Positions 1 to 56,537 of a DNA stretch of 56,537 bases are shown one piece after another (within the stretch, counting starts at the first letter, position 1; every line of letters begins with the position of its first letter). Location of the stretch: NCBI GenBank assembly GCA_964550035.1, contig CAZJVU010000007.1, forward strand, positions 1 through 56,537, in the 5' to 3' direction. This stretch comes from an uncultured Candidatus Saccharibacteria bacterium (lineage in GTDB: Bacteria; Patescibacteriota; Saccharimonadia; Saccharimonadales; EFPC-124). Made by a program: the position numbers and the translations under genes. A model generated the notes under the pieces. The model searched no databases. It saw nothing but the letters and a program-made list of their open reading frames with translations, and had not been told where the DNA came from.

Positions 1-33
1 TCGTCGTGGGGGCTGCCAAAAGTCTTTTGTTTC

Positions 34-85
34 TTTTTTTTTTTTTTTTTGGTTTTTAATTTTTTTTTGGCTGGGCGGGGGGGGG
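34..85. repeat. Homopolymer-rich tract: T17 (34-50), T5, T9 (60-68), then G9 (77-85)
   Basis: Read directly. It lies at the window edge, just beyond the hairpin that follows minus-strand ORF 123-485, and reads as A-runs on that strand. Confidence 0.9.
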
Positions 86-118
86 CGACGGGCGACCACA
101 GAGGGCCGCCCGTCGCCC
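83..118 (-). terminator. GC-rich hairpin 4 nt 3' of the stop of ORF 123-485
   Basis: Perfect 12-bp stem GGGCGACGGGCG / CGCCCGTCGCCC with a 12-nt loop. No U-tail on the gene strand. Confidence 0.6.
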
Positions 119-122
119 ACGC

Positions 123-485
123 TCAGGCGGAGAGCCTTGACAGCGTCGACTCGTCGAAGCTGAGGATGGCGTCGACCACCAGCTCGACCGCGAACTCCAT
201 GTCCACTGGCTTGCCGCCGTGTTCCCACGGATCGTGGACTGCACGGTGAGTCGGCACCCTCGACAACCAGTCGGCGAGCCGTTCGACTGCGTGGCTCGTA
301 GACCCGACGCCCACCAGGATGAGCCTCAGGGTCTTGCGGCGTCGACCGGTGGCGTTGATGAAGGGTTTCTGGATCAGCTCTTCTCGCACGAGCGTTCGGA
401 GCAGTTCGCGACGGAACTGGTAGTTCCGCGGAACCGTGATCGTGATCGAACGCGTACTGGGGTTGTAGCGAAATGATCTGTTCAA
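123..485 (-). CDS. GC-rich hypothetical protein (120 aa, TTG start)
   Basis: The long minus ORF is trimmed to a TTG 7 nt after GGAGG. It is GC3-rich with no domain recognised. The stretch ILVGVGSTSHAV..DWLS weakly resembles the core of the 150-aa paralogue family. Confidence 0.45.
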   Translation of the reverse strand: MNRSFRYNPSTRSITITVPRNYQFRRELLRTLVREELIQKPFINATGRRRKTLRLILVGVGSTSHAVERLADWLSRVPTHRAVHDPWEHGGKPVDMEFAVELVVDAILSFDESTLSRLSA

Positions 486-528
486 GACTGATCCTCCTCG
501 AGGAAATGGCGCGGTTGAGGCAGTGGTA

Positions 529-557
529 AATTTATCATCTTTTCTGTATACTGTCAA
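529..557 (-). promoter_or_regulatory. Putative promoter TTGACA-17-TAAATT for ORF 123-485
   Basis: Hexamers read on the minus strand. It lies in the AT-richer flank next to the tlyA start. Confidence 0.4.
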
Positions 558-561
558 TGAA

Positions 562-1290
562 ATGACCAAGTTCCGACTCGACCAACTATTGGTGCAAAAA
601 CGCCTTGTGGATACACGCTCTCAGGCAGAGAGCTGGATTAAACTTGGTAAGGTTTTGGTCAATGGCAAGGTAAACCTCAAGCCTGGGTACTTTCTGTCTG
701 CAGACGCGAATGTTGAGCTAAAGGCAGAAGAGAAGTATGTATCGCGCGCCGGTCTCAAACTTGCTTCGGTTGCACGGCTGCTCCAGCTCGACTTTGCGGA
801 CGCGGTTGTGCTGGACGTCGGCTCGAGTACTGGCGGTTTTACGGACTATGCGCTGCAACACGGCGCGCGAAAGGTGATCGCTGTCGATGTTGGCACTGAC
901 CAGCTACATCAGTCGCTCCATGGCAACCCAAAGATCGAACTACACGAGCAGACCGACATCCGTGACATGGATGAGTTGAGCGATGCACCAGATATCGTCG
1001 TGATCGACGTGAGCTTTATAAGTCTGCGTGAGATTTTGCCGCACGTCGCAAAGCTCTGCACGCCACACACGCAGATCGCCGCCATGCTGAAGCCGCAGTT
1101 CGAAGCGGGGAACAGCGCCAAGCACAAAGGTGTGATCAAAAACGATTCGATGCGTCGCGATATCTTGCACGAGTTTGAATCGTGGGCTAAGAATTTGTTC
1201 GTTGTGGCCGACAAGCGCGATAGCGATGTGGCCGGAAGCAAGGGGAATCGTGAGCGGTTCTATCTATTGCGACCCTTGCTAAAGAAGTAG
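562..1290 (+). CDS. tlyA: TlyA-family rRNA 2'-O-methyltransferase (S4 domain + FtsJ-like MTase)
   Basis: S4-like N-terminus RLDQLLVQKRLVDTRSQAESWIKLGKVLVNG and SAM motif VLDVGSSTGGFTD. ATG 562 preferred over the in-frame upstream ATG 523. Confidence 0.9.
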   Translation: MTKFRLDQLLVQKRLVDTRSQAESWIKLGKVLVNGKVNLKPGYFLSADANVELKAEEKYVSRAGLKLASVARLLQLDFADAVVLDVGSSTGGFTDYALQHGARKVIAVDVGTDQLHQSLHGNPKIELHEQTDIRDMDELSDAPDIVVIDVSFISLREILPHVAKLCTPHTQIAAMLKPQFEAGNSAKHKGVIKNDSMRRDILHEFESWAKNLFVVADKRDSDVAGSKGNRERFYLLRPLLKK

Positions 1291-1305
1291 AATTTATGGT
1301 ATAAC
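1276..1305 (+). promoter_or_regulatory. Module promoter A: TTGCTA-18 nt-(TGG)TATAAC
   Basis: Same architecture as 2019-2048 and 3089-3118. The -35 element sits in the last tlyA codons. Confidence 0.5.
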
Positions 1306-1345
1306 CATCTTTGTTCCCCCCAAAAACCTCGAAGGGTGAAACTTA

Positions 1346-1810
1346 ATGGTATTCAAAAGAGGGCGTCGGTTGCCGGCGGTGCCGCCTGTCCCCGAAGCCA
1401 TCCAGGCTCGGCAAGATCAACAAGTACTCCAGGACGCGCAGAATCTTCTGGCGACGATCCACAGGGAGGTACTCCCTCGAATCAACCGACTGCTTGGGTC
1501 CGAGGGCTCCAACTCATACGACATCGGGTCGCTCAACATCATGGGATCCTCGTCGATGGGCGTGCGCATCTACAACACCACAGGCGCGCTAGGCTGGCTG
1601 TCTCCGCTGCTGGCTGCACTCCGTGGCCCGGCATACCGCGGCTACACCGTCACTGCCGCGGTGGAGTGGCGCGAGGGTGGTGGACGAGCGCCGAGATGGA
1701 GGTCGCTCCCGCTGAACGAGAGCGACCCATCCGTGTCGATCGTTGAAGCGAAGAAGCGGAACAATCAGCGATCGGTACGCGTGGCGGTGCGCATCAAGGT
1801 GCCTCGATAG
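1346..1810 (+). CDS. GC-rich paralogue A (154 aa), unknown family
   Basis: Aligns with ORFs 2085-2537 and 3155-3592: a basic N-terminus (KRGRR), IGSLNIMGSSSMGVRIY, GWLSPLLAALR, LNESDP, and VRVAVRIKV at the C-terminus. GC3-rich frame. Confidence 0.6.
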   Translation: MVFKRGRRLPAVPPVPEAIQARQDQQVLQDAQNLLATIHREVLPRINRLLGSEGSNSYDIGSLNIMGSSSMGVRIYNTTGALGWLSPLLAALRGPAYRGYTVTAAVEWREGGGRAPRWRSLPLNESDPSVSIVEAKKRNNQRSVRVAVRIKVPR

Positions 1811-1833
1811 CCCTCACAATCCCTCGCCGCGGC

Positions 1834-1905
1834 TTGGAAAGAGACAGAGAGCATGGACGGCGTGTCGACCTCGTCTGCGTACATGTGCGAGGCCACATTC
1901 GCTGA
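1834..1905 (+). pseudogene. Relic 3' end of a fourth family member (..LERDREHGRRVDLVCVHVRGHIR*)
   Basis: It is in a third frame, after the stop of paralogue A. The translation matches the family C-terminus (B: NVYACVRVRMRGHTL*). Its TGA sits 2 nt before the conserved hairpin, comparable to B (3 nt) and C (10 nt). Confidence 0.55.
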
Positions 1906-1907
1906 CG

Positions 1908-1968
1908 CCGGCTGGGGCGCCCGGGCTTTGCGGCCCAGGGCGCCCCACCGGCGAGAATTGAACTTATG
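1908..1968 (+). repeat. Conserved 3' module copy 1: bulged GC hairpin (1908-1951) + 8 nt + GAACTTATG
   Basis: CCGG-C-TGGGGCGCCCGGGC / GCCC-A-GGGCGCCCCA-CCGG. By hand count, 53 of 61 nt are identical to copy 2. Confidence 0.85.
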
Positions 1969-2018
1969 CAGTTAGGGCCAGAGTTGTACATCTCGAGAAG
2001 TTTGTCTTCGAGCGATTC

Positions 2019-2048
2019 TTGCGTCTATAGCACTAATTATGGTATAAC
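2019..2048 (+). promoter_or_regulatory. Module promoter B: TTGCGT-18 nt-(TGG)TATAAC
   Basis: Extended -10. The block 2013-2088 is identical to 3082-3157 at 58 of 76 ungapped positions (hand count). Confidence 0.55.
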
Positions 2049-2084
2049 AACTAAGTCCAAGGGAGACTCACGAAAGGTCTTTTG

Positions 2085-2537
2085 ATGTTGGGTCGAAAAA
2101 AGCGGGCAGCCAGTTCCGGTACTCGCGGACGAGCTTCACTGCTTCAGGCTCCGCTAGGGGAGGAAGACGCGAGAAACGCCAAGATCCTCAAGTGTGTCAA
2201 CAAGGCTCTCACTTCTGGGCAACCCCAGTCGTTCAGCGTGGGATCGATTTTGATCGAGGGGAGCTTCGGCGGGGCTCATGTCCGTGAACCTTCGGGCACG
2301 TACTACTGGGTTCCTTCGCTGATCCTGGCGCTTCGAGCCAAGCACTCCGACTGCGAGGTCCGGGGGTTTGCGCTGTGGGGCGACCCCAGAGTGAATCGAT
2401 TCGATCCCCAAAAGCGGCGCAGGTTGTACGTGGATCACTCGCTCGGTGACATCTTCGCGGATGCACGGAAGTCGGCAGGCCCTGGAGCGAACGTCTACGC
2501 CTGTGTGCGTGTGCGGATGAGAGGGCACACCCTCTGA
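2085..2537 (+). CDS. GC-rich paralogue B (150 aa), unknown family
   Basis: Basic N-terminus GRKKR, VGSILIEGSFGGAHV, WVPSLILALRA, and C-terminal VYACVRVRMRG. ATG 2085 preferred over TTG 2082. ACGAAAGGT leader. Confidence 0.55.
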   Translation: MLGRKKRAASSGTRGRASLLQAPLGEEDARNAKILKCVNKALTSGQPQSFSVGSILIEGSFGGAHVREPSGTYYWVPSLILALRAKHSDCEVRGFALWGDPRVNRFDPQKRRRLYVDHSLGDIFADARKSAGPGANVYACVRVRMRGHTL

Positions 2538-2540
2538 TAT

Positions 2541-2600
2541 CGGCTGGGGCGCTCGGGCTTGTCGGCCCAGGGCGCCCCACCGGCAAAAAATGAATTTATG
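2541..2600 (+). repeat. Conserved 3' module copy 2: bulged GC hairpin (2541-2583) + 8 nt + GAATTTATG
   Basis: Nearly identical to copy 1. The stop codon of the convergent NUDIX gene lies inside the GAATTTATG motif. Confidence 0.85.
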
Positions 2601-3051
2601 TAATGATCTGACTGTATTCGTAGATGCGGCATTCGGCATTGATTGTCGAATTTTTGAATTGTCCGGGATCCATAAAGGCAATTTCGTCGCCATCTTCACC
2701 AGCACTAAATTCCATACGCGTGGGGCGTACGGCAAAGATGAGTCGCAGCTGCCAAAAGTTGTGCGCCTCGAGAAGCTTCGGCTCGTCAACGGCTATCACT
2801 TTGTATGTGAAGTCACCCTCGAGGTTGACTTCTTCTTTCATCTCACGGGCAATTGCTCGATGCAAGTTTTCGCCATGGTCCATGCCGCCACCTGGCAGGT
2901 CCCACCAGTCACGGCCTGTTTCTTTGACGACTAGCACATTTCCGGCTTTGTCTGTAATGAGGCATTTGAGCGAAACGCGGAACAGATAGTCGGTCCTTCT
3001 GAGCGATGGGGCATCGTGCGAGACGACACCGTGAGGGTTTTGTGCTTGCAT
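2596..3051 (-). CDS. NUDIX hydrolase
   Basis: Nudix box GGGMDHGENLHRAIAREMKEEVNL. Backbone-like GC. A TATAAT (3059-3064, minus) ends 7 nt before the ATG, which suggests a leaderless mRNA. Confidence 0.85.
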   Translation of the reverse strand: MQAQNPHGVVSHDAPSLRRTDYLFRVSLKCLITDKAGNVLVVKETGRDWWDLPGGGMDHGENLHRAIAREMKEEVNLEGDFTYKVIAVDEPKLLEAHNFWQLRLIFAVRPTRMEFSAGEDGDEIAFMDPGQFKNSTINAECRIYEYSQIIT

Positions 3052-3088
3052 AGAAGCTATTATACCCGATTACATCAGGGTGCGATCC

Positions 3089-3118
3089 TTGCATCTACAG
3101 CAGCAATCATGATATAAC
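3089..3118 (+). promoter_or_regulatory. Module promoter C: TTGCAT-18 nt-(TGA)TATAAC
   Basis: Same spacing and extended -10 as modules A and B. Confidence 0.55.
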
Positions 3119-3154
3119 AGCTGAGTCTCATCGACACTTACGAAAGGTAGCTTG

Positions 3155-3592
3155 ATGTCCGGTAAGAGAAGGCGATGCACGGGTCCTGCGGCCATGCAGC
3201 GCCAGCGGGATGCGCTCCAACGCAATCGACGGGAGCGGAACGAGCAGATCCTGAGGCGCATCCGCACAGTCTTGAACTCCGCGGGCTTTCGAGTATTCCG
3301 CGTGGGTGCGGTCTCGATTGTCGGCGGCAGCCATGGCGCTCAGATCTACGAAGTCATGGGTTCGGTCGACTGGGTAAGCCCGCTGCTGACGTCGCTCCGA
3401 GAAGAGTATCGCGACCGCAAGGTTACAGCGTGCGTGCAGTGGCGGGCTCGTCATGTCGGCAGTCTGGAGGCTCCGCAGCAGCGACCACTCGACGAGAGCG
3501 ATCCCCTGAAGTCCCTCATGGCGGTACGGGAAGAAGTAGGAACGAACGGCAACGTGGCCATCTACATCTGCGTACGCGTGAGCAAGAAATGA
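3155..3592 (+). CDS. GC-rich paralogue C (145 aa), unknown family
   Basis: Basic N-terminus GKRRR, VGAVSIVGGSHGAQIY, DWVSPLLTSLR, LDESDP, and C-terminal IYICVRVSKK. ATG 3155 preferred over TTG 3152. Confidence 0.6.
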   Translation: MSGKRRRCTGPAAMQRQRDALQRNRRERNEQILRRIRTVLNSAGFRVFRVGAVSIVGGSHGAQIYEVMGSVDWVSPLLTSLREEYRDRKVTACVQWRARHVGSLEAPQQRPLDESDPLKSLMAVREEVGTNGNVAIYICVRVSKK

Positions 3593-3602
3593 CTTCGTAA
3601 CG

Positions 3603-3659
3603 CCGGTGGGCGCCCGGGCCGACGAGCCCGAGGTGCCCACCGGTTACATTAGAACTTAT
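3603..3659 (+). repeat. Conserved 3' module copy 3: bulged GC hairpin (3603-3643) + 8 nt + GAACTTAT
   Basis: CCGGTGGGCGCCCGGGC / GCCCG-A-GGTGCCCACCGG. Each arm is one nt shorter than in copies 1 and 2 (a compensatory change), and the unpaired A is kept. Confidence 0.8.
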
Positions 3660-3675
3660 TTTTGCTTGAATTTCT

Positions 3676-4569
3676 CTAGAATAAGCTAACTTGGTGCGGC
3701 CCGGCGTCATTTTTCTCGACGCTGTAGTTGAGCGTACACGTGTATCCGGTAAGTTTGCTGAGGGGTAGGGCGTACTGCAGGCCGTCTTGCTCGTTGATCA
3801 TAACCGAGCCGACCATGCCGAGGCAACTTCCCGAGATGGTATTGTTCTTACCAATATCCACAAGGTCCTGTGGATGAAGTGGATTGTCGCCAAGGAAGTA
3901 CGAGTCGAGGTGCAGTGGTTCGGCGTCGTCTGGGGCGATGCCCACTTCTTTGATGAGTCGTTCGCGAGTTGCACGAAGTTCATCAGCGCCGACCTTAGGA
4001 TCGTATGGTCGCTTGAGGTACTGATACTTGTGGCGGAGCTGCAACGTCTCGGCAATACCGGGGAGTTTCGCAGTCTTGGCTTCGTATTGGCGAGCAATAT
4101 CGGCATTGGGGTAGGTCTTGATGATAACTGCACTACGTGCGCCTTGGTCGAGCAGGCGCCGAATGCCACGTCCGGCCCAACTTATCCCCACTTTAACCAC
4201 ACCCGGTGCAAAATGGGCGAGATAGAGGATGTGCGGTTGGGCGTTGAAGGCCTGTTGCTGCTCGGAAACTGAGGCGGCGTTGTAGAACGCTGGGTTGAAT
4301 CCGGTTTTTTGTTGGCAGTGACGGCATTGGTCGTATTGGTCGGGGAGTGTTGCCGCATCAGGACAGGGGAAGCTCTCTGCGGTTGCAAGATCGTGCCAGC
4401 CGCCACAGTAGCGTGTGGTCGTATCAAAGCTAAGCGTGAATGCTTGATTGCGCGGTTCGAAGTGGGTGAACGCTTCGCCATCTTTCGGTAGCAAACTCAA
4501 CTGTGGCTGATGGTCGGGCCCATAGCCGTAGTGAACAAATAGATAGTTTCCCTCGGGCAGCTTTGTCAC
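3676..4569 (-). CDS. Conserved hypothetical Cys-rich protein (possibly DUF2797-like)
   Basis: 297-aa ORF with a Cys cluster (YCGGWHD..FPCPD..CRHCQ). The family name is from memory only. Confidence 0.55.
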   Translation of the reverse strand: MTKLPEGNYLFVHYGYGPDHQPQLSLLPKDGEAFTHFEPRNQAFTLSFDTTTRYCGGWHDLATAESFPCPDAATLPDQYDQCRHCQQKTGFNPAFYNAASVSEQQQAFNAQPHILYLAHFAPGVVKVGISWAGRGIRRLLDQGARSAVIIKTYPNADIARQYEAKTAKLPGIAETLQLRHKYQYLKRPYDPKVGADELRATRERLIKEVGIAPDDAEPLHLDSYFLGDNPLHPQDLVDIGKNNTISGSCLGMVGSVMINEQDGLQYALPLSKLTGYTCTLNYSVEKNDAGPHQVSLF

Positions 4570-7680: not shown

Positions 7681-9885
7681 ATGAAGCACCTCAATAAATT
7701 TCATCTTGCTATCCTGTTGGTGGGCATGGTTGCCTCTTTTCTTGTGGGCTACGCTAAGACCGCCGACGCCTTTCCGGTATATGGACGCGATCAGTACTAT
7801 GGGTACTTCAAGAATGTTCGTGATACTTGGGGTGACAACGTCTGGCACGTCAATGGTCCAGCTGAGCTCGCCATTCCGCTATGGGTTAACAATGCCGATA
7901 CATTTGTAAGCTTCGTGAAGGCCAAGCTTGCCGCCGGTCCAGGGACTCAAGACGGCGTAGGCGCTGCGTTTATTATTCAGACCATGATTGGCTCTGCGCG
8001 TAATCTGCCACCGACGGGCGCACAGGTTACTGACTGGGAATCGCGCGTACGGTATGCGGCGGCCCAGGGGTGGATTAGCTGGAACCAGACAGTGACGTTC
8101 ACGTTGAACAGTTACTATCAGGGTCCTTGTTCTGGGTATGGTTGTGATCAGAGAGCTGGCGACGCCAACCCTAACGACGATGCTTTTTACGATGATAGCC
8201 TCAGCAGCTCCTCGGCTATCGTGTTCCGCAACTCCAGCGGTAACGTCGCCTACATGCTGCGTCACCAGTGTGCAAACCCGATCGGCACGCTTGGGCCTCT
8301 CACGGTAGCGCCACAATATACTATCAACGGTACGTCTACGGTATCTGATGCGACGGTTATTCCAGGGCAAACGATCACCTTCACGCACAAGTTGAGTAAC
8401 TCTGGCCCTGATAATGCGCCGAACGTTAACTACACTGTGTATCAAGATGGCGTAGCCAAAGCGTCGGGTGGGCCGTTCACGCTGGGTGTCACCACTAACA
8501 CGGTGAACACAAACACATTCAAGATTCCGAACAACACGCTGCCGAATACCAAATTCTGCCAGTGGGTTCACTACACGCCAAAGAACCAATTAGGAGGGTC
8601 GGGCGATAGCGCCCAGGTCTGCGCAACGGTCATTGCTGACTTCGAGCTCACGCCGACGGTCACAGCGAGCACAACAGCGGCCCAGCAGAACGATAGCATT
8701 TCGTTCACCTATCAAGTGTTCAATCCTGGACCGACGCCGTCTACCACCACGACATGTAAGATCGTGGGCAATACGCACGGTCCTGGCTATACGCCATTGC
8801 CACAGCAGGACACAGACCGCTCATCGGACGCGGGCTATACGCCGCCATCCACGAGTTGTCCGACAAACTTCCTCGTGCCTGGACCGACAACTGTCGCAAC
8901 CGAGACGGTTGACGTGGGGAACGCTTCGCCAGGCTCGCGTATCTGTCGCTCGCTCGTCGTTGACCCTAAGAACGAAACAGGTGGTCCGCGTGCGAGTGCG
9001 GAAGCCTGTGTCGTCATAGCCAAGACGCCATATGTCCATTTCCAGGGGAATGATGTCTGGGCCGGCGGCGGTTTCGCCGACGTTGCCCCGGCTTGTAATG
9101 CGAGCTCCAAGATCACAACAAGCGCCCATGCGCTAAAAGATGGCTCTGTTGCCGGGTCGGGCGTCGAATACGCCGCCTTTGCACTCGGTAAGATCACGAA
9201 CTTCGGTAGCGCGGGCAGAGCTATTGTGAACCCCGCTGCAGCAGTAGGGAAGATGCTGACATTTAGTAACGTCAACAATAGCAACCTGGGCTTCTATGGC
9301 GCACCTCAGCACTGCATCAATAGCTACGTTGCTACCTACAGTGGTACGCCAATCACAACGCAACCCGGAACGATCGACGTTAACCAAGGGAGCGGTACAT
9401 ATCAAACCAATGGTGCGCACACATTCCATGGCAATGTGCCAAACAAGTCACAGCAGATCTGGCTGGTGAATGGCGATGTCACTATCGATGGCGATATCAA
9501 GTACTCTGACAGCTATGGCGGCCTCGACGACATTCCGTCGCTCGTGATCATCTCAACAGGCAATATATATGTGCAGCATGGCGTGAAGCAGATGGATGGC
9601 TTATTTGTTGCGAAGAGCACATTCAATACATGTAGCGATGCGCCTGCTGGCAACCTGAGCGTCAATGACTGTAAAGATCAGCTGACTATCAACGGCTCGG
9701 TTATAGCCGGCACGCTGACCCTGCTCCGCACGTATGGTGCTGATGGTGGCGACGATGGTGCGCGAAAGAATCCGGCCGAAGTATTCAACTTCAACGCCGA
9801 GATGTATCTGAAGAGCGCGCTGAACGGCTCGAATAGTTCCACGCTCCGAACAGTGGACGAAAAGGATTTGCCGCCGCGGTATTAG
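7681..9885 (+). CDS. Large secreted/surface protein with CARDB/DUF11-like repeats
   Basis: Signal peptide MKHLNKFHLAILLVGMVASFLVGYAKTADA. Repeated Ig-like segments (PGQTITFTHKLSNSGPDNAPNVNYTVY; ISFTYQVFNPGPTPS). Located directly upstream of the pilus operon. Confidence 0.7.
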   Translation: MKHLNKFHLAILLVGMVASFLVGYAKTADAFPVYGRDQYYGYFKNVRDTWGDNVWHVNGPAELAIPLWVNNADTFVSFVKAKLAAGPGTQDGVGAAFIIQTMIGSARNLPPTGAQVTDWESRVRYAAAQGWISWNQTVTFTLNSYYQGPCSGYGCDQRAGDANPNDDAFYDDSLSSSSAIVFRNSSGNVAYMLRHQCANPIGTLGPLTVAPQYTINGTSTVSDATVIPGQTITFTHKLSNSGPDNAPNVNYTVYQDGVAKASGGPFTLGVTTNTVNTNTFKIPNNTLPNTKFCQWVHYTPKNQLGGSGDSAQVCATVIADFELTPTVTASTTAAQQNDSISFTYQVFNPGPTPSTTTTCKIVGNTHGPGYTPLPQQDTDRSSDAGYTPPSTSCPTNFLVPGPTTVATETVDVGNASPGSRICRSLVVDPKNETGGPRASAEACVVIAKTPYVHFQGNDVWAGGGFADVAPACNASSKITTSAHALKDGSVAGSGVEYAAFALGKITNFGSAGRAIVNPAAAVGKMLTFSNVNNSNLGFYGAPQHCINSYVATYSGTPITTQPGTIDVNQGSGTYQTNGAHTFHGNVPNKSQQIWLVNGDVTIDGDIKYSDSYGGLDDIPSLVIISTGNIYVQHGVKQMDGLFVAKSTFNTCSDAPAGNLSVNDCKDQLTINGSVIAGTLTLLRTYGADGGDDGARKNPAEVFNFNAEMYLKSALNGSNSSTLRTVDEKDLPPRY

Positions 9886-18753: not shown

Positions 18754-18793
18754 GCCACCCTTTGGCATGACGCTTATGCTATAATGCTGACAA

Positions 18794-22041: not shown

Positions 22042-22971
22042 CTACGCAGCGTCTTCCGCAGACAGCTCTTTATGAAACCGCTCGTGCACTTCCTTGAGGT
22101 GAGGGTCAGTCACGTGCGTGTAGATCTGAGTTGTCGAAATATTACTGTGACCAAGCATGGTCTGAACGCTCCTGAGGTCCGCGCCGTTCATTAGTAGCCC
22201 CGTAGCGAACGAATGGCGCAGTGTGTGCGGCGAAACTTTCTTAGTAATGCCCGCCAGCGCCGCATAGTGGGCCACGATGCGTTGGATGCTGCGTGGCGTC
22301 AGACGACCGTAGTCGCCACTATTATCTATCTGTTCGGCCCCACCGTACCGGATAAAAAGCGGCCTGAGGCTATCGCTGCGCACAAGCAAGTACTCGGCGA
22401 TCAAGGCAGCAGCGTCCTCGCTAATAAACACCGGACGATCCTTCTGGCCCTTACCGCGGACCATAAACTCACGGCGCTTGAGGTTGACCGTATCACGGTT
22501 GAGCGCGACTAGCTCTGATACACGCAATCCGCTCGAGTAGAGGAGGCCGACAATGGCGCGATCGCGCAGGCCAATCTTGTTGTCCGAAGGGATAGTAGAG
22601 AAGAGCCGGCGGAGCTCGTCTTCGTTCAAGAAGCTTACCTGCTTGCGCGTCACGTGTGGCAGCTCGACCTTCTCAGGGGTGAGCGCTTCGATGCCTCGCT
22701 TCGAGCAGAACTTTAGAAAACTGCGTAGCGCAATAAGGTGGTAGGCTTGGGTAATCTTGGAGAGCCCTTCGCCGTTCTCATTCTGATATCGCGCTAGCCA
22801 GAGGCGCCATTTACGGATAAGCTCATTATTGACCTTTATGATGTCGATATCGCCGGCAAAATCAACCAAACGATTCAAATACAAATGATAGTTCTCGGAA
22901 GTTTTCTGCGAACGATTCTGTTCTACCTCGAGGTATTCCAGGAAATCGATAATGAGTTCCGAAATATACAT
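22042..22971 (-). CDS. Tyrosine recombinase XerC/XerD family
   Basis: SAM-like N-terminal domain. C-terminal RHSFATGLLMNGADLRSVQTMLGHSNISTTQIYTHV (R..HxxR..Y). Confidence 0.88.
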   Translation of the reverse strand: MYISELIIDFLEYLEVEQNRSQKTSENYHLYLNRLVDFAGDIDIIKVNNELIRKWRLWLARYQNENGEGLSKITQAYHLIALRSFLKFCSKRGIEALTPEKVELPHVTRKQVSFLNEDELRRLFSTIPSDNKIGLRDRAIVGLLYSSGLRVSELVALNRDTVNLKRREFMVRGKGQKDRPVFISEDAAALIAEYLLVRSDSLRPLFIRYGGAEQIDNSGDYGRLTPRSIQRIVAHYAALAGITKKVSPHTLRHSFATGLLMNGADLRSVQTMLGHSNISTTQIYTHVTDPHLKEVHERFHKELSAEDAA

Positions 22972-23040
22972 AGTGCTTATAGTATACCACCCAACGTCGC
23001 CCATAGCCCTCAAGGGGCGAATGGCTTACAATAAAATGTA

Positions 23041-24428: not shown

Positions 24429-24504
24429 GCCCCGGTAGCTCAACGGATAGAGCAAGCCCGTCCTAAGGGAGAGGTTGTAGGTTCGATTCCTACCCGGGGT
24501 ACCA
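24429..24504 (+). tRNA. tRNA-Arg (anticodon CCU)
   Basis: Cloverleaf by hand: acceptor GCCCCGG/CCGGGGU, D arm GCUC/GAGC, T arm GUAGG-UUCGAUU-CCUAC, loop GUCCUAA, CCA encoded. The anticodon stem has two purine-purine mismatches. Confidence 0.75.
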
Positions 24505-24601
24505 AATCTTGATAACAGATATGATTTAGTTCGAACTTTTAGACCGTTTTGCCGATCTATCCGTTAGATGGTTCTAACTTTTGCTTGTTAAGATAAAACA
24601 T

Positions 24602-25129
24602 ATGGCTTTAATATATATCACTGGCATGCCGAGTTCAGGTAAATCAACTATTCGCGAAAAGCTTCTGCAAAAAGGCTTTACTGCATATGGCGGAGCAGAA
24701 GATAAGCTAGCAGCGTTCTACAATAATCAAACTGACGATAGGGTTGAGTGGGTCAAAGCAGAAGATCGCACCCCCGAATGGAATCGACAGCATACTTGGA
24801 AAATCCCGAGAAAAACAATTGAAGAATTAAAGCACTTGAACAAGGATGACGTAGCTTTTTTATGTGCAGTTACAAGAAACGATAAAACCGAACTCTGGGA
24901 TCTATTCGATAGAGTAATAGCATTAACGATTGACGAAGAGACTCTTAAATATCGCTTGGCAACACGTGCTAATAACGATGTCGGTAAATCTGAACACGAG
25001 TTGAGGATTCTCATCGAACGACAAAAGACAGCCGAAGATGAATATCGGCAACTTGGAGCACATCTCATCGATGCGACGCAGCCGGTTGATAAAGTACTGC
25101 AAGATATTTTAGATATCGTACAAGACTAG
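24602..25129 (+). CDS. P-loop nucleotide/nucleoside kinase-like protein
   Basis: Walker A ITGMPSSGKSTI. About 175 aa. Low GC (37% in a hand-counted 60-nt sample). Confidence 0.6.
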   Translation: MALIYITGMPSSGKSTIREKLLQKGFTAYGGAEDKLAAFYNNQTDDRVEWVKAEDRTPEWNRQHTWKIPRKTIEELKHLNKDDVAFLCAVTRNDKTELWDLFDRVIALTIDEETLKYRLATRANNDVGKSEHELRILIERQKTAEDEYRQLGAHLIDATQPVDKVLQDILDIVQD

Positions 25130-25133
25130 CCCG

Positions 25134-25167
25134 GTTCTAATTTCATACATTACGCTGTACCATTTCT
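25134..25167 (+). repeat. 34-nt direct repeat, copy X
   Basis: GTTCTAATTTCATACATTACGCTGTACCATTTCT. 28 of 34 nt are identical to 25645-25678. Confidence 0.85.
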
Positions 25168-25214
25168 ATAATTATTTTTGAGCTACCTAAGCAAGATGAT
25201 TAAGTTATCGAGGC

Positions 25215-25547
25215 TTAGGCAACATTCCAGCCAAAATAAACTTCTGTCCGCGACACTTGATCGCCGTCAAAAGTTAGTACTTCAGTGTTCCTTCCCTTTT
25301 TGCCGTTTTGCGCAGACTCATAGGTAACGATAATCTCATTACCGGATTCGACCAGTCTTACAAACTCAAAGCTCTGTCCTTTTCCCGCCCCGGGCCAGCA
25401 GCGTTCAAAGAAGCCTTCTTTGTCCAAATGCGGATCAGGAGGCGACGAAAACGTAAAGTCCTTTGCTAAAATTTTCTCAACAAAATCACGGTCTCCAGAT
25501 GCGAATGCTTTGTAAAAGTTCTTTACTGATTGAATTCGGTCGCTCAC
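25215..25547 (-). CDS. NTF2/SnoaL-like small protein
   Basis: The fold is typical of SnoaL/DUF4440-like proteins (KNFYKAFASGDRDFVEKILAKDFTFSSP). GTG start 6 nt after GGAGG preferred over the upstream ATG. Confidence 0.6.
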   Translation of the reverse strand: MSDRIQSVKNFYKAFASGDRDFVEKILAKDFTFSSPPDPHLDKEGFFERCWPGAGKGQSFEFVRLVESGNEIIVTYESAQNGKKGRNTEVLTFDGDQVSRTEVYFGWNVA

Positions 25548-25644
25548 TCTATGCCTCCTATACCTTACTTCTTGCAGTAGTGGCATTTTGACAGAGTCTT
25601 CGCTTCGCTTGCAAGTATAAAAATCCTACCTAGTTCACTGACCA

Positions 25645-25678
25645 GTTCTAATCCTGTACAACACGCTGTACCATTTCT
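25645..25678 (+). repeat. 34-nt direct repeat, copy Y
   Basis: GTTCTAATCCTGTACAACACGCTGTACCATTTCT. Confidence 0.85.
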
Positions 25679-25822
25679 GCGTACACAATGATTTGACCTT
25701 TTGTTGAGTGGTTAGGTATTATTGGTCTACAATTTGGTTTGTTATGGATGGATGGTTGGGTTCTCGGAAAATGTACGAGTTTAATAAACTTGTGCATTTT
25801 TATTTGGAAGGAGAAAATACAC

Positions 25823-26122
25823 ATGAGCATTACCGATTTACAGCAGTGGGTAGCCGAAGACTGGCGCCGCCGCTCAAAACACCAACCAGCAGTGGAGCTG
25901 CAGCTTCTCTATATCCTCGAGGAGCTCGGCGAGGTAGCGGAGGCGATACGCAAACGGGGCGGCAAGAAAGATCGCAAACTCACAGAGGTCGACCTCGGTT
26001 CGGAGATCGCGGATTTGGTGGTATCCATAACAACACTTGCCAATCATTTTGATATAAATATTGAGCAAGAGGTTGTAAAGTTTCAGGAGCGCATTATAAA
26101 ACGACATCAAGAAGGCTTCTAG
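25823..26122 (+). CDS. MazG-like nucleotide pyrophosphohydrolase
   Basis: LYILEELGEVAEAIRK and EIADLVVSITTLANHFDINIE (EExxE/D metal motifs). RBS GGAAGGAG. Confidence 0.75.
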   Translation: MSITDLQQWVAEDWRRRSKHQPAVELQLLYILEELGEVAEAIRKRGGKKDRKLTEVDLGSEIADLVVSITTLANHFDINIEQEVVKFQERIIKRHQEGF

Positions 26123-26140
26123 CCTTTAGCAAAGGGAATT

Positions 26141-26560
26141 ATGAAGATTTGTATTACAACGAGATTTAAAGGCGCTGAGAATAAGGAAGATATAGTAAAG
26201 CTCTGTGCTGCCGTGCGTGCGGCTGGTATGGAAGAGTTTAGCTTTATCAGAGACGTCGAAAACTATCAGAAGACTTTCGATGACCCCAAGAAGTTGTGGC
26301 AGAGAACAAAAGAAGAGATTAAAAAGTGTGATGCACTCCTGATCGACGTATCCGACCACCCAAGTGGGGGAAGGGTTATCGAGGCGGGAATCGCATTTGC
26401 ACTCGACATGCCGGTCGTCGTGCTAGCAAAAGAAGGCCTAGACTACAAAGATATCTACGATGGCATTGGCGCGCGTATCATTCGGTACAACACGTACGAA
26501 GATATTACGAAAGGTCTTGTCAACTTCCTAGAAGAAGGATATACGGCGCAGTCCGAGTAA
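26141..26560 (+). CDS. Nucleoside 2-deoxyribosyltransferase-like protein
   Basis: Rossmann-like, 139 aa. CDALLIDVSDHPSGGRVIEAGIAFALDMPVVVL resembles NDT/DNPH1-type proteins. Confidence 0.6.
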   Translation: MKICITTRFKGAENKEDIVKLCAAVRAAGMEEFSFIRDVENYQKTFDDPKKLWQRTKEEIKKCDALLIDVSDHPSGGRVIEAGIAFALDMPVVVLAKEGLDYKDIYDGIGARIIRYNTYEDITKGLVNFLEEGYTAQSE

Positions 26561-26592
26561 AACTTGATTGTTTTTGCTACAATACATATATC

Positions 26593-27114
26593 ATGACGCA
26601 ACAGTTCGAGGGCCAGCACGATGACGAGGAGGTCAAGTTTATCTTTCGTCGGCACCCTGTAGCCATACGCAAGGCGTTCTACCTGTTGTTTATTCCATTC
26701 TTAATCTCGTCGCTACCAATACTGTTCTGGCCGGACAATATTAATTTGCTGTGGTTGGCGTTCGGCGGATTAGGCGTTGGCATCGTGTTGTTTTTTTATC
26801 ATTGGATTGGGTGGTACTTTAGTGTCTTTATTGTGACTAACTTTCGCCTCAGGCAGGTAACGCAGAAGGGGTTCTTTAATAAGAGTGTGATAGATGTGGG
26901 CATATCGAAGATACAGAATATCAGCTATAATGTACCTGGTTTTAGTGCGGCAGTGCTCGGCTACGGTACACTGGTGGTACAGACGTATGTCGGTGATCTA
27001 GTGCTCGATCGCATTCAACATCCGGGTAAGATTTACAACGAATTGCAAAAGGTTGTCCACGGCTCAGCCGGCGACGAAGGGTTAATGCCAGACTATGAAG
27101 AAGATACTCCATAA
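26593..27114 (+). CDS. Membrane-flanked PH-domain protein (YdbS/YdbT-like)
   Basis: FIFRRHP start, two TM helices, then a bacterial PH-like domain. Confidence 0.6.
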   Translation: MTQQFEGQHDDEEVKFIFRRHPVAIRKAFYLLFIPFLISSLPILFWPDNINLLWLAFGGLGVGIVLFFYHWIGWYFSVFIVTNFRLRQVTQKGFFNKSVIDVGISKIQNISYNVPGFSAAVLGYGTLVVQTYVGDLVLDRIQHPGKIYNELQKVVHGSAGDEGLMPDYEEDTP

Positions 27115-28184: not shown

Positions 28185-28219
28185 CGCGGGCGCGGCCTCG
28201 GTGAGAGGTCGCGCCCGCG
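28185..28219. terminator. GC hairpin between the convergent ppiC-like and macro genes, apex CTCGGTGAG
   Basis: CGCGGGCGCG / CGCGCCCGCG, a 10-bp stem. Confidence 0.6.
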
Positions 28220-28234: not shown

Positions 28235-28759
28235 TCAGCCCCGAGTCTCCTCGAGTCGTCGCCTTAGAAGGCCGGCCATCTGAGAGCCGGGGCGAATGAC
28301 GAACCGAACCGAGACGACCGAGCGAGGATGGCCCGTCTCGAACTCCTTTACCGCTTGGCAGAGATGTTGGACGGCCACCTGGGCGTTTGCCTCCACCCTT
28401 CCGATCGCCATGCCCGTGCGGATTGCTGGCAGAGTGACCCGGCGAAGGCCAGCGGCATCGGCAGCGCGCAGTGCGATCAGCACCAGCTTTCGGAGGGGAA
28501 GTTCCAGGTCGTCCACGACGAACAGTACGTTCCTGAATTGGCCGTTGTGCTGGCCGGCTGCGCTCGTGGCCAGCACGGTTTGCCCGTCTTTGAGCGGTGC
28601 GGCTTGTGCCGCCTGTTGGTGGAACAAGGGGCCAGCCACTCGAGCGATCGCACCATCGATTCCGCCCAGCCAATTGCCGCCCGAGTTGATGGCGGTGATC
28701 AGCGCGTCGGCGGGTTCCTGCGTGATGTCGCCCTCGATAACCACGACAGAGAATCCCAT
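28235..28759 (-). CDS. Stand-alone macro-domain protein (ADP-ribose binding/hydrolase), GC-rich
   Basis: VVIEGDITQEPADALITAINSGGNWLGGIDGAIARVAG matches the macro-domain N-terminal signature. Two shadow ORFs overlap it. Confidence 0.8.
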   Translation of the reverse strand: MGFSVVVIEGDITQEPADALITAINSGGNWLGGIDGAIARVAGPLFHQQAAQAAPLKDGQTVLATSAAGQHNGQFRNVLFVVDDLELPLRKLVLIALRAADAAGLRRVTLPAIRTGMAIGRVEANAQVAVQHLCQAVKEFETGHPRSVVSVRFVIRPGSQMAGLLRRRLEETRG

Positions 28760-31164: not shown

Positions 31165-31272
31165 ACGTTTATTGACTTGAGTAAGTGTAACAATTTTTGT
31201 GTTATCTGACAAGTGTTTATAAGGGGTGGTATTGTCCATGCGGTCTTTGCTATAATGACCTCTGTCGTATGT

Positions 31273-34263: not shown

Positions 34264-34515
34264 GACACAGTCATAATAGCATAAGCATTACAAAAAAGCA
34301 AGAGCAGGGTATGTATTGACGAAATATCAGAGTATTGTTTAGATAACTAACTCGTTCTGCATGCTATGATGTCGAGTTTCGGGGGATGTATTAGTAGGTA
34401 TACCATATGCGATATGAATTCATGTGAGGGCCAACAAAAAACACGTGGAAAACTAGTGGAATCTGTGGGTAAACAAATAGCTCCAGAAAGGAGCTCTTTG
34501 CCGAAAATAAGTTCA

Positions 34516-39117: not shown

Positions 39118-39133
39118 CGCCCAGTTCAAAACT

Positions 39134-39165
39134 AAAAACACCGCCTCATGTGGGGCGGTGTTTTT
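39134..39165. terminator. Bidirectional intrinsic terminator
   Basis: AAAAACACCGCC-tcatgtg-GGGCGGTGTTTTT, between convergent genes. Confidence 0.8.
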
Positions 39166-39185
39166 AGTAAGAGGGATAGGGTGTT

Positions 39186-40388: not shown

Positions 40389-40438
40389 TTTGCTGAGATA
40401 GTGAATTTATTTTACAATTTGGGTATAAGGGTAGACAC

Positions 40439-41314
40439 ATGAAACAAAAAATTTCAGTTAGAGCGCTGATAAAAAATAACGAGAAGATACTATTGGTGAG
40501 ACGTGCGAGCGGCAGTCCTCAATATATTGGGCAATTCGAACTGCCGGGCGGCAAGCTCGAATTTGGCGAGGATCCTGAAGCTGCAGTTCGGCGGGAGGTC
40601 GCAGAAGAGCTTGGTATAGATGCTGGGGTAACACAGCTTTATAGAGTTATCTCTTGGCTCGATACGGTAGAGAGAGATACGCAGCATGTGATAGTCGTAT
40701 ACCTTGTGGCGCTCGCGAGCGATACAGTCAAGATTAGTCTTAGCACAGAACATGACAAATTTGTGTGGAAGGAGTTGTCAGATATACAACTTAACGGGTT
40801 AAATTCTCTAACTAAAATTGTACTCGAAGATGAGCTAAAAGAAGTAGCAACAGATACGGATGAGGCATCTAGCGTAGACACTGATACAACATATACTAAT
40901 GCTCGAGAAGTTATTGTCTACACTGATGGCGGCTCGCGTGGTAACCCTGGGCCTTCGGCGTCGGGCTTCGTTATTTATGCAGCCGACGGAGAGCTCCTCT
41001 TTGAAGGCGGGAAATACCTAGGTGTAACCACGAATAATCAAGCTGAGTACCAGGCGGTTCGCTTGGGGCTTGAGAAGGCGCTCGAGCTAAATGCTCAGGC
41101 TGTAAGTTTTCGACTCGATAGTCAGCTCGTGGCTAATCAGCTAACTGGAGTGTACCAGATAAAAAACAGAGATCTATGGCCAATCCATACAAGTATCAAA
41201 GAGCTTATAGGGAAGTTTAGAAAGGTAACGTTTACTCACGTTCGCCGCGAGTTCAATAAAGAGGCCGACGCCATGGTTAATAAAATCCTGGATCAGCATA
41301 CGCAGAGTACATAA
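40439..41314 (+). CDS. NUDIX hydrolase - RNase HI fusion protein
   Basis: N-terminal Nudix box GGKLEFGEDPEAAVRREVAEELGI. C-terminal RNase H with DEDD residues (VYTDGGS, NNQAEYQAV, LDSQLV, NKEADAMV). Confidence 0.85.
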   Translation: MKQKISVRALIKNNEKILLVRRASGSPQYIGQFELPGGKLEFGEDPEAAVRREVAEELGIDAGVTQLYRVISWLDTVERDTQHVIVVYLVALASDTVKISLSTEHDKFVWKELSDIQLNGLNSLTKIVLEDELKEVATDTDEASSVDTDTTYTNAREVIVYTDGGSRGNPGPSASGFVIYAADGELLFEGGKYLGVTTNNQAEYQAVRLGLEKALELNAQAVSFRLDSQLVANQLTGVYQIKNRDLWPIHTSIKELIGKFRKVTFTHVRREFNKEADAMVNKILDQHTQST

Positions 41315-41352: not shown

Positions 41353-41708
41353 ATGTCAGACTGCTGAATGGTCGCTTGATTTTCGAATCAAGAGGAAAGT
41401 CCGGGCAGCTTAGGACGAGGCAGTTGCTAACCGCAACCGGGGGCGACCCTAGGGAAAGTGCCACAGAAACGATACCGCCAGGCTTCCCGCGTGGTAAGGG
41501 TGAAAGGAGTGGGGTAAGAGCCCACAGTCAGCCTAGGCGACTAGGCTGAGAGGTAAACCCTGCCTGCTGCAAGGAGGTACGTCTTCCGCCCTCACAGGCG
41601 GTGGTGGTTCCGCCAGACGTGCCGTCTAACCGCTTGATTGTGTAAGCAATTATGCAACTAGATAGATGATCATTCTCGACAGAACCCGGCTTATAGGTAG
41701 CCTGATAT
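41353..41708 (+). ncRNA. rnpB: RNase P RNA (bacterial type A-like)
   Basis: GAGGAAAGTCCGGGC and ACAGAACCCGGCTTA signatures. P1 pairing of the ends. TATAAT at 41342-41347. Confidence 0.9.
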
Positions 41709-41709
41709 G

Positions 41710-41738
41710 AAAATACCGCCCATCAAGGGCGGTATTTT
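41710..41738. terminator. Bidirectional intrinsic terminator
   Basis: AAAATACCGCCC-atcaa-GGGCGGTATTTT, between rnpB and rplT. Confidence 0.8.
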
Positions 41739-41758
41739 CGTTTGTAAGGTTTGCGCAA

Positions 41759-44384: not shown

Positions 44385-44450
44385 AGATGCCGCGAGTAAA
44401 GCATAAGTAGCCTAAGGAGCACAAGTATGTTATAATACTTATGGTAACGA

Positions 44451-44842
44451 GGGGCTGATCTTAGCTTCGACGTTTGGAATTTTACATCTGTCACTACGCA
44501 AGCCGTTTGAACGGGCGTTAACGTTCACACAAATAACTGCAAAGTCATTTGTACAGCGAGTAGCTGACGCTTTCCGCGCTCCAGCTTTCGCACCAGTTGC
44601 TGCCTAGTAGGCTTTTAGCAACCGTCATTCGTCCTGATGCCAAATAAGGACGGTGATGTCATACTCATTTGGCTCGGATATGCCGTAGCTGCGGAGCGGT
44701 ATGTCGACTTTTATTCGTAGGTCTCGGTTAGCTTTGTTGGGCATTGTTTAGGCCGGCCAGACTATCATTCAAATGTCCTAAGCTTGTAGACCGGTGATGG
44801 GTGACCAGACGGACCGGGGTGCGATTCCCCGCAGCTCCACCA
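44451..44842 (+). ncRNA. ssrA: tmRNA
   Basis: 5' GGGGCTGATCTTAGCTTCGACG and 3' GGACCGGGGTGCGATTCCCCGCAGCTCCACCA. Tag ORF 44539-44607 = AKSFVQRVADAFRAPAFAPVAA with a double stop. TATAAT at 44431-44436. Confidence 0.92.
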
Positions 44843-44873
44843 AAAATGACTCAGCGTTAGCTGAGTCATTTTT
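44843..44873 (+). terminator. tmRNA terminator
   Basis: AAAAATGACTCAGC-gtta-GCTGAGTCATTTTT. Confidence 0.85.
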
Positions 44874-45680
44874 GATAGCAACGTACTGAGGTCGTCTAGA
44901 TAAAAAACAACGGCCTGCGAGAAGCCGTTGTTAGAGTTTTCGTTTTTTGTTTTTGAGCACTTTTTTTATTCAAGTGCTACCCCTATATTAGTAGTCACGC
45001 TTATGGCTGTCAACAAGTTTTTTCGGTGATTGATGAATCTGTGGAAAACTAAATAATCCCACACGAGAGGCTATCTGGCCGACCAGCATAGCCCAGGTGA
45101 AAGCCATAAACGCTGCGCATTCTTTTACTTGTATCCACCTGCTCAATTTTAGAAACTAGTGCTTACCGATTACGTGCCTTGCGAAATGCGCTTATGTGTT
45201 TGGAGTGTCGCTAGTAGACCCATGAGCGGTAGGGCGGTGGGGCTAGTTCAGCGTAGATAAGTGGCGGCCTAACGCGACACACACCCGATCATACGGTCGG
45301 CCCTGCGCCATGTCACATAGAGCGTGGAGGGGAGCCTGAACGTGGTGGGCAAGCTGGCTTACTCACATACCACCGCGCAATTATTGCAAAGGGCGGTTGC
45401 GAGTAACCGTGGGGGTTAGTATGCCCGTCGCAGCAAATAGGCGGGGTGCCGTTGAGCCGCATCATAGTCCGAGACAGGAGGTGCATATAAAACGTATTTT
45501 ATACAACGTTAACGATATATCGGGTACCTGAACAGATATAAAATGTAGATTGTACTACACATGCTATGGTTGTAATTATTGACATTATCGTTTTGCCGTG
45601 CTACATTGTACTTAAGCTTTTAGTAATAAAACAAAAACATTACAAAAAACAAAAGCTCGCACATTTCTTAAGTTGTAAGT

Positions 45681-56483: not shown

Positions 56484-56537
56484 TTTATGGAGAGTTTGAT
56501 CCTGGCTCAGAATGAACGCTGGCGGCGTGCCTAATAC
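56484..56537 (+). rRNA. rrs: 16S rRNA, 5' end only (truncated by the window)
   Basis: AGAGTTTGATCCTGGCTCAG at 56491-56510, followed by AATGAACGCTGGCGGCGTGCCTAATAC. Confidence 0.93.

Follow-up and report, generated by a model that had tools for sequence, protein, structure and literature searches.

What is the role of the structure in which three paralogous genes of a Candidatus Saccharibacteria (TM7) chromosome all end? The genes lie on a chromosomal contig of 56,537 bp (CAZJVU010000007.1, analysed over its full length and referred to here as the window), which has a G+C content of 51.5% and carries tRNA genes, the tmRNA and RNase P RNA genes, a type IV pilus cluster and gyrase genes. They encode proteins of 145–154 aa, are all on the plus strand between a tlyA-like gene and a DUF2797 gene (Table 1), and each ends with a strong, bulged, GC-rich hairpin of 20–22 bp, followed by a short spacer and an octamer box, GAAYTTAT. 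A preliminary description of this DNA had weighed a structure-specific recombination site against a plain terminator followed by the truncated promoter of a once-adjacent unit. The analysis below indicates that hairpin, spacer and box most likely form a conserved module at the 3' end of transcription units that are complete in themselves, each made up of an extended -10 promoter, a Shine-Dalgarno leader, an open reading frame (ORF) of ~150 aa and the 3' module itself. As judged from sequence comparison, the chances are about even that this module serves as a 3'-end signal of the sense-strand RNA, that is, a terminator or stabiliser without a U-tract for which the downstream box would act in pausing or release.

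Hairpin, spacer and box in the window

Folding with RNA parameters gave minimum free energies of -48.7, -35.7 and -41.7 kcal/mol for copies 1, 2 and 3, with z-scores against dinucleotide shuffles of -5.4, -3.2 and -5.3. With DNA parameters the z-scores were -5.3, -4.0 and -5.1, and both strands folded alike. The proposal that one hairpin structure ends all three loci is borne out by both kinds of folding. The unpaired A of the 3' arm, also pointed out in the preliminary description, is present in every fold, 5 bp below the loop, and copies 1 and 2 have an additional unpaired C on the 5' arm. Copy 3 does lack one G (TGGGCGCC vs TGGGGCGCC) and one C (GGTGCCCA vs GGCGCCCCA) relative to the other copies, as described. 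The distance between the CCGG foot of the stem and the box is exactly 8 nt in all three copies (CGAGAATT, CAAAAAAT and TTACATTA), again in agreement with the earlier observation. The hairpins sit between convergent genes or ahead of the promoter of the next unit, and the convergent NUDIX gene has its stop codon (the TTA at nt 2596–2598) inside the box of unit 2. Rfam models at their gathering scores matched nothing within nt 1–4000, and at E≤1 there was solely an 18-bit noise match to GOLLD at nt 1–118.

Hairpins 2 and 3 follow directly after the stop codons of their genes. Hairpin 1 begins 96 nt past the stop codon (which ends at nt 1810), leaving an unusually long 3' untranslated stretch (nt 1811–1905), the last ~20 nt of which match the coding end of unit 2, the remainder showing no demonstrable relation to any unit. 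The ends of copies 1 and 2 share 82% DNA identity over 83 nt (nt 1886–1968 vs 2518–2600), and since this similarity takes in the last 20 coding nt of copy 2, the 3' end has been copied between units. The stretch at nt 1811–1885 was also considered as the decayed C-terminus of a lost fourth unit; this was rejected, as its alignment to the coding DNA of copy 2 scores 15 against a shuffle mean of 17.

GAAYTTAT occurs eight times in the window, compared to 2.9 expected (eight was reached in 3 of 100 shuffles), and four of the eight copies fall within the 2.4 kb between nt 1290 and 3659. Two others adjoin the genes for tRNA-Val (nt 34507, minus strand) and tRNA-Pro (nt 40403), and the box was therefore considered as a general mark of structured-RNA ends. 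This was rejected because the number of copies outside the locus equals chance and the spacings at tRNA-Val and tRNA-Pro are 5 and 15 nt. The copy at nt 40403 (GAATTTAT, 15 nt after tRNA-Pro) lies in the promoter region of a gene for a fused NUDIX and RNase H-like (RVT_3/RNase_H) protein just past that tRNA (nt 40439–41314), and is judged to be a chance match. An antisense promoter formed by the box (minus-strand NATAAG, located 8 nt ahead of the stem) found no support either, as a conserved TG and a -35 element are missing upstream and convergent genes end there.

The module in related genomes

Genes of the same family were found at the tlyA locus in nine other Saccharibacteria genomes, with zero to three units per genome. 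Their hairpins were located through the encoded proteins and not through the motif. The prediction that box and spacing would recur in additional copies holds for 11 of these 13 hairpins, which are followed by GA(A/T)NTTAT at 8 nt (9 nt in locus L031). Seven of the 11 boxes read GAACTTAT, and GAATTTAT, GAAATTAT, GATCTTAT and GATATTAT are found once each; most end in TTATT, not TTATG. The bulged A of the 3' arm is present in 11 of 13 copies and the bulged C of the 5' arm in most. The hairpin starts 0–12 nt past the stop codon in 12 of 13 units, the usual beginning being CGTCGG-C-TGGGGCGCC at the stop codon, with CGYCGG/CCGRCG as the stem base. The spacers group into types (CGAGAATW, CGAAGCACT and CRNGAAAC).

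The box is not confined to this gene family. Upstream of tlyA, on the opposite strand, is a GC-rich gene of a second, unrelated family (orf123 in the window), which has no Pfam match and ends in a different GC-rich hairpin (GGGCGACGGGCGG...). In L029 (nt 654–1138, minus strand) and L031 (nt 3590–4089, minus strand), the orf123-type hairpin is followed after 8–9 nt (ACGACACT and CCGACACTT) by GAACTTAT, which abuts the -35 element of the next gene, a member of a third family (~160 aa). In L006 (nt ~7694–8113), AAACTTAT stands ~10 nt after the orf123-type hairpin.

Within 146 kb of Saccharibacteria DNA the pattern GAWHTTAT has 46 matches, 15 of them behind a strong hairpin, and all 15 are at the tlyA locus. 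A covariance model built from the 13 modules and searched in the same 146 kb recovered known copies only, the weak matches being second-family modules and a remnant in L001 (see below). An exact 20-mer of the 5' arm gave 17 matches in metagenome_contigs, all in unrelated GC-rich DNA without a hairpin and attributable to chance, and none in viral_contigs. The single match of a 3'-arm-plus-box pattern in viral_contigs lies inside a phage ORF without a hairpin, and is likewise attributed to chance.

Elsewhere in the window, a Macro-domain gene of high G+C content (0.64; nt 28235–28759, minus strand; Pfam Macro 1.8e-6) is followed by a 15-bp hairpin of 86% G+C (nt 28185–28219) that lacks a T-tract. 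The tail of this hairpin (GCGACACAACTAAGCT) is similar to the orf123-type spacer, but a clean box is absent. This is a further case in the genome of a GC-rich gene followed by an I-shaped hairpin.

Selection on the structure and the strand on which it is read

Synonymous divergence (dS) of tlyA between the related genomes is 0.9–1.7. Neutral sites are thus saturated and unconstrained sequence should be close to random, so the persistence of hairpin and box indicates that both are under selection. The pairing itself is maintained: 86.7% of the cells in the stem alignment are paired, compared to 43–49% when the partners are slid, and double-sided changes occur at eight pairs, a number reached by none of 500 shuffles. 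The suggestion, made from copy 3 alone, that its paired losses are compensatory and the structure is selected accords well with these figures. The stem core is nearly invariant (GGCGCC). Spacer positions carry only 0.2–1.2 bits, while six box positions are fixed in every module, including those of L028, L034 and the second family; as these six positions are part of the search pattern itself and hence necessarily constant, the statistic that stands independently is the 11 of 13 protein-located hairpins given above.

The wobble pairs have a strand bias, with 17 G·T cells against 5 A·C cells in the stem alignment (9 vs 2 in the core helix). G·U is tolerated on the strand that carries it but appears as an A·C mismatch on the other, so that the bias points to the sense strand as the one on which the structure is read, most simply in mRNA.

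Promoters of the units

The three units have similar promoters (TTGCNN, 18 nt, TATAAC), with T(T/C)ATG(G/A) just before the -10 element, and leaders with AAAGG or GAAGG 8–9 nt ahead of the ATG. The -35 element of unit 1 is held by the last codons of tlyA, and the 5' region of unit 3 is 77% identical to that of unit 2. An echo of the 3' box had been reported next to the -10 element of each unit. It is exact at nt 1290 (GAATTTAT, nt 1290–1297), but at nt 2035 and 3105 just T(T/C)ATG is common to the two. The same motif is found at unrelated promoters: TGNTATAA lies upstream of tRNA-Thr (nt 31248), tmRNA (nt 44428) and other genes, and TTATGnTATAAT is found at nt 18777. The 5' echo, AAT(T/C)ATG, is therefore the generic TRTG/extended -10 motif of this organism and not a repeat of the box. 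The units have no 5' hairpin, and no 5' box beyond this promoter motif.

Most unit leaders open with a conserved CTRAGTY right after the -10 element (AACTAAGTCC, AGCTGAGTCT, AACTGAGTCA and others). It is present in the window at nt 2049–2060 and 3119–3130 and in leaders of L001, L029 and L032; unit 1 of the window is an exception. Both tlyA and the NUDIX gene appear to be leaderless (nt 529–558, and nt 3052–3075 on the minus strand). TGTATACT is found 8 nt ahead of the tlyA ATG and is kept in all relatives, and TATAAT lies 9 nt ahead of the NUDIX ATG (minus strand), back to back with the promoter of unit 3.

Table 1. Coordinates of the features of the tlyA–DUF2797 locus in the window.
Feature	Position (nt)	Strand	Evidence or remark
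GC-rich gene of second, unrelated family (orf123, 123–479) with its own GC hairpin (84–118)	84–479	-	
tlyA-like rRNA methyltransferase (S4 + FtsJ)	556–1290	+	Pfam FtsJ 3.9e-33, S4 7e-13
Unit 1 promoter: -35 TTGCTA (1276–1281), 18-nt spacer ending TTATGG, -10 TATAAC (1300–1305)	1276–1305	+	
Unit 1 ORF, 154 aa, small-protein family	1346–1810	+	G+C 0.63 vs 0.515 for the window
Unit 1 hairpin, bulged C on 5' arm, bulged A on 3' arm	1906–1953	+	Covariance model 82.3 bits
Unit 1 spacer CGAGAATT (1952–1959) and box GAACTTAT (1960–1967)	1952–1967	+	
Unit 2 promoter: -35 TTGCGT, 18-nt spacer, TTATGG upstream of -10 TATAAC	2019–2048	+	
Unit 2 ORF, 150 aa	2085–2537	+	
Unit 2 hairpin; one G·U pair possible on sense strand only	2540–2583	+	Covariance model 78.6 bits
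Unit 2 8-nt spacer CAAAAAAT and box GAATTTAT (box at 2592)	2584–2599	+	
NUDIX hydrolase gene between units 2 and 3	2596–3051	-	Pfam NUDIX 1.4e-12
Unit 3 promoter: -35 TTGCAT, 18-nt spacer, TCATGA upstream of -10 TATAAC	3089–3118	+	
Unit 3 ORF, 145 aa	3155–3592	+	
Unit 3 hairpin, 1 bp shorter than the others, bulged A kept	3602–3644	+	Covariance model 56.2 bits
Unit 3 8-nt spacer TTACATTA and box GAACTTAT (box at 3652)	3644–3659	+	
DUF2797 gene, right anchor of the variable locus	3676–4569	-	Pfam DUF2797 2.8e-14; synteny

Gain and loss of units at the tlyA locus

The tlyA gene is the left anchor of the variable locus and is syntenic across all related loci. Family members in L001, L025, L028, L029/L030, L031, L032/L033 and L034 are each located either directly after tlyA or between the NUDIX and DUF2797 genes. 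Gain and loss at the level of whole units, which had been put forward as a test, is what the comparison shows: units vary from none to three per locus. There are three in the window, two each in L029 and L032, and one each in L028, L031 and L034. L025 has one family unit, preceded by an operon of two unassigned small ORFs with its own hairpin, and L001 has one unit plus an internally deleted remnant. Units are absent from L005, L006 and L007, and the box is likewise absent at these empty sites; in L006, tlyA and DUF2797 have overlapping stop codons. The NUDIX and 2',5'-RNA-ligase genes also vary in presence between loci.

In the L001 remnant (nt 2782–2940, position B), ~430 nt of ORF are gone, while the promoter (ATTATGGCATAAC), the first part of the leader, one half of the hairpin and GAACTTAT survive. 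The tail of this remnant is that of L031, and copy 1 in the window shares its tail (CGAGAATTGAACTTAT) with the units at position B in L029 and L032. The unit alleles are also discordant with the tlyA tree; tlyA is 95% identical between L001 and L029 and their A units are 41% identical. On these comparisons, modules appear to be exchanged between units and between strains.

This pattern resembles that of tandem paralogue arrays evolving by birth-and-death and unequal homologous recombination, in that zero to three units occur at a fixed locus with conserved flanks, the ORFs are divergent, remnants such as that of L001 are present, and the alleles are incongruent with the species tree. It differs from such arrays in that conservation is far higher in the non-coding ends than in the coding sequence, and the 3' end is common to a second, unrelated family. 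The simplest explanation for changes in unit number would be ordinary homologous recombination or gene conversion, with the conserved promoter/leader and 3' module of adjacent units as the repeats used, and with alleles being swapped between strains.

The small-protein family

The locus next to tlyA is hypervariable and holds a lineage-specific, rapidly diverging family of small proteins. The three ORFs of the window are paralogues (23–37% identity) with a G+C content of 62–63%. Neither their products nor those of the neighbouring GC-rich ORFs could be assigned to a family in Pfam, PHROGs, PADLOC or NCBIfam, and these resources did not reveal any RNA- or DNA-binding domain in the small proteins. 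A word-indexed protein search gave four clusters; 20 real clusters, all of ~150 aa and restricted to Saccharibacteria, were recovered when 1.84 billion representative proteins were scanned in full with HMMER. A further candidate, P0017 (1381 aa, with repeats), was a spurious match and was rejected.

Family proteins have a basic N-terminus rich in Arg and Lys and a PPDP motif, and contain a beta-rich domain as well as a long helix. The AlphaFold prediction is of high confidence (predicted local distance difference test, pLDDT, 94; predicted template modelling score, pTM, 0.81), and a fold search with it gave nothing below E = 0.04 in PDB or BFVD. As it could be placed in none of the catalogued families, and its model, though confident, resembles no structure in these collections, the family is considered new. 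Between most genomes the unit proteins are only 20–53% identical, and their ratios of non-synonymous to synonymous divergence (dN/dS) are 0.18–0.58 compared to 0.03–0.07 for tlyA, i.e. about ten times higher. A hypervariable locus, fast divergence and a confident model without a counterpart among known folds are together what one would expect of genes for host interaction or conflict in these epibiotic bacteria.

Function of the 3' module

Of the canonical intrinsic terminator, the module has the GC-rich 3' stem-loop and lacks the U run. It is closer to the I-shaped (U-tract-less) terminators, described mainly in Actinobacteria, in which a long GC-rich stem follows right after the stop codon without an adjacent U run, in GC-rich genes and often between convergent genes. 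In contrast to these, the module has conserved bulges and a conserved 8-mer at a fixed 8–9 nt, and its host, at 51.5% G+C, otherwise uses canonical U-tract terminators. To our knowledge, a conserved box at a fixed distance is not a feature of any terminator class described so far. The second explanation of the preliminary description therefore survives in part. An I-shaped terminator fits, but a truncated promoter does not, because the cores differ (GA..TTAT vs TRTGnTATAA), most boxes end in TTATT, and the box also stands behind hairpins of an unrelated family.

As a 3'-end signal, the module might act as follows. A GC-rich stem of 20–22 bp would form directly past the stop codon, when RNA polymerase is ~8 nt downstream, on the A/T-rich end of the spacer, where the RNA:DNA hybrid would be weak. 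The box would then provide a pause or release signal, or define the 3' end, in place of a U-tract, and the fixed spacing would be set by the length of the RNA:DNA hybrid. The hairpin may also protect the 3' end of the mRNA and insulate the convergent genes (NUDIX, DUF2797 and 2',5'-ligase). The spacer is A/T-rich at its end and closes with a pyrimidine in 11 of 14 modules; the base after it, the first of the box, is an invariant G. This junction resembles the consensus pause signal, G-10 Y-1 G+1. If this function is correct, the locus would be a concrete case of a U-tract-less hairpin defining an RNA 3' end by means of a fixed-distance downstream element, would bear on the dispute over whether I-shaped terminators work, and would concern a group, the Saccharibacteria and the Candidate Phyla Radiation (CPR), whose gene-expression signals are almost unstudied.

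Several observations weigh against a terminator. A run of T right 3' of the stem is absent from all three spacers, and a terminator scan does not call the three hairpin sites. Canonical A-tract/hairpin/T-tract terminators are present elsewhere in the genome (nt 39131–39168, 41707–41741 and 44841–44874), which implies that the polymerase of this organism normally relies on U-tracts, and the terminator activity of U-tract-less hairpins is itself disputed. Six near-invariant box positions exceed the known needs of pausing and suggest that a protein or nucleic acid recognises the box. Two hairpins in L025, with perfect 15-bp stems and the GGCGCCCGRGC core kept, lack the box. Because of the canonical terminators, the six fixed bases and the boxless hairpins, some weight has to be given to a binding factor and to an enzyme acting on single-stranded DNA.

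In the first of these, hairpin and box would serve transcriptional or post-transcriptional control as the site of a sequence-specific factor (a protein that binds RNA, an RNase, or one of the basic small proteins) that sets mRNA stability or feeds back on expression. This is unlikely, though it would account for the six invariant box positions and the near-invariant stem core in the face of saturated neutral divergence. The conserved bulged A and C would also be natural features of such a site, a stem of ~22 bp is of the size of an RNase III substrate, and the module accompanies two unrelated gene families in one neighbourhood. The encoded proteins, with their Arg/Lys-rich N-terminus, long helix and confident model without a match in PDB or BFVD, could be considered as ligands; they have, however, no RNA- or DNA-binding domain in the databases searched, and any binding partner is putative. 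Moreover, a cognate pair of protein and site would not usually combine a fixed site with fast-diverging proteins, as is the case here.

A second alternative, that only the hairpin is functional and the box is a relic of descent or gene conversion, such as an old promoter fragment or a duplication junction, has a low probability. The modules are indeed related by descent, with grouped spacer types and few independent lineages, and gene conversion is evident from the ends of copies 1 and 2, 82% identical compared to 20–23% for the proteins; the L025 hairpins also do without the box. A relic should nevertheless have been randomised at the dS values found for tlyA, as has largely happened to the spacer, and yet GA..TTAT is kept in the distant L028 and L034 and behind the second-family hairpin. 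The difference between the cores of box and promoter argues further against a promoter fragment.

It is equally doubtful that the module acts as single-stranded DNA, with an HUH-type nuclease or integron-like recombinase binding the hairpin and cutting or exchanging the box, and so moving or deleting whole units. The geometry is suggestive: in the right ends of IS200/IS605, the 3' ends of IS91 and Helitrons, the nic region of transfer origins (oriT), and repetitive extragenic palindromes (REP) with their associated transposases (RAYT), a hairpin is followed by a short conserved sequence at ~8–12 nt, and the box, at 8–9 nt from the hairpin foot, has the geometry of a putative cleavage motif. 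Integron attC sites likewise are imperfect hairpins with extrahelical bases at the 3' ends of variable genes, varying in number at one locus. Whole units have been gained and lost, alleles are discordant with the tlyA tree (as between L001 and L029), the box is found behind the hairpins of two unrelated families, and in five different contexts, among them copies 1 and 2 as a fairly recent pair, homology between units does not extend past TTAT.

A Pfam scan of the ~57 largest ORFs of the window, however, found no Y1/HUH transposase (TnpA/RAYT), relaxase or integron integrase. A Xer-type tyrosine recombinase (nt 22045–23013, minus strand; Phage_integrase 3e-41 plus an N-terminal SAM-like domain) is 18 kb from the locus, and a TraG/VirD4-like ORF of 998 aa (nt 46800–49796, plus strand; TraG-D_C 3.7e-5) is 43 kb away. 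An integron has intI and attI next to its array, whereas no intI was found among the scanned ORFs of the window, and the units here flank tlyA in both orientations. Integron cassettes are promoterless and share one orientation, whereas each unit here has its own -35 and -10 elements and the second-family modules are on the opposite strand. In attC sites the R''/R' boxes (RYYYAAC...GTTRRRY) form the base of the stem and the bottom strand recombines; here they do not form the stem base, the conserved GAWNTTAT is separated from the stem by 8 nt, and the bias in wobble pairs is towards the sense (top) strand, which favours RNA. An attC-like R-box partner for the box upstream of the stem was looked for and rejected, being absent save for weak A/U pairing in copy 3. 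IS200/IS605 elements differ in having a left-end hairpin and an HUH enzyme, REPs in being dispersed (in the 146 kb and the contig collections no dispersed copies were found), and an oriT in occurring once per element, next to the three copies at one locus seen here, again without a relaxase in the scanned ORFs. Family members in 10 genomes are all at one locus, unit-free sites have neither a box nor a core site, the 5' ends are without a hairpin or a box of their own, and the two L025 hairpins are boxless. The structure-specific recombination site suggested in the preliminary description (attC, IS200/IS605 or REP/RAYT) is thus not upheld, and of that reading only the geometry of hairpin, ~8 nt and short motif still fits.

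An integron-like cassette system, in which some single-strand DNA enzyme (HUH-like or other) would cut at hairpin and box and insert, excise or swap promoter-bearing units at a tlyA hotspot, is very improbable. A DNA recombination site here would amount to a new kind of cassette system in CPR/Saccharibacteria, diversifying fast-evolving small proteins whose fold model has no counterpart in PDB or BFVD.

Other features of the window

The window starts with a low-complexity poly-T/poly-G sequence (nt 1–83), ~40 nt past the hairpin of orf123. The independent assemblies of L001 (nt 1–30) and L032 (nt 1–36) both break within the homologous orf123-type hairpin, which suggests that this stretch is hard to assemble or strain-variable, and the first ~80 bases of the window may be an assembly artefact. 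At the other end, the contig stops within the first ~50 bases of a 16S rRNA gene (nt 56489–56537, AGAGTTTGATCCTGGCTCAG). Right after tRNA-Arg(CCT) is a block of low G+C content (0.41–0.47; nt 24429–27114) that encodes AAA_18 kinase-like, SnoaL-like, MazG-domain and nucleoside 2-deoxyribosyltransferase-like proteins, and may represent an acquired nucleotide-metabolism islet.

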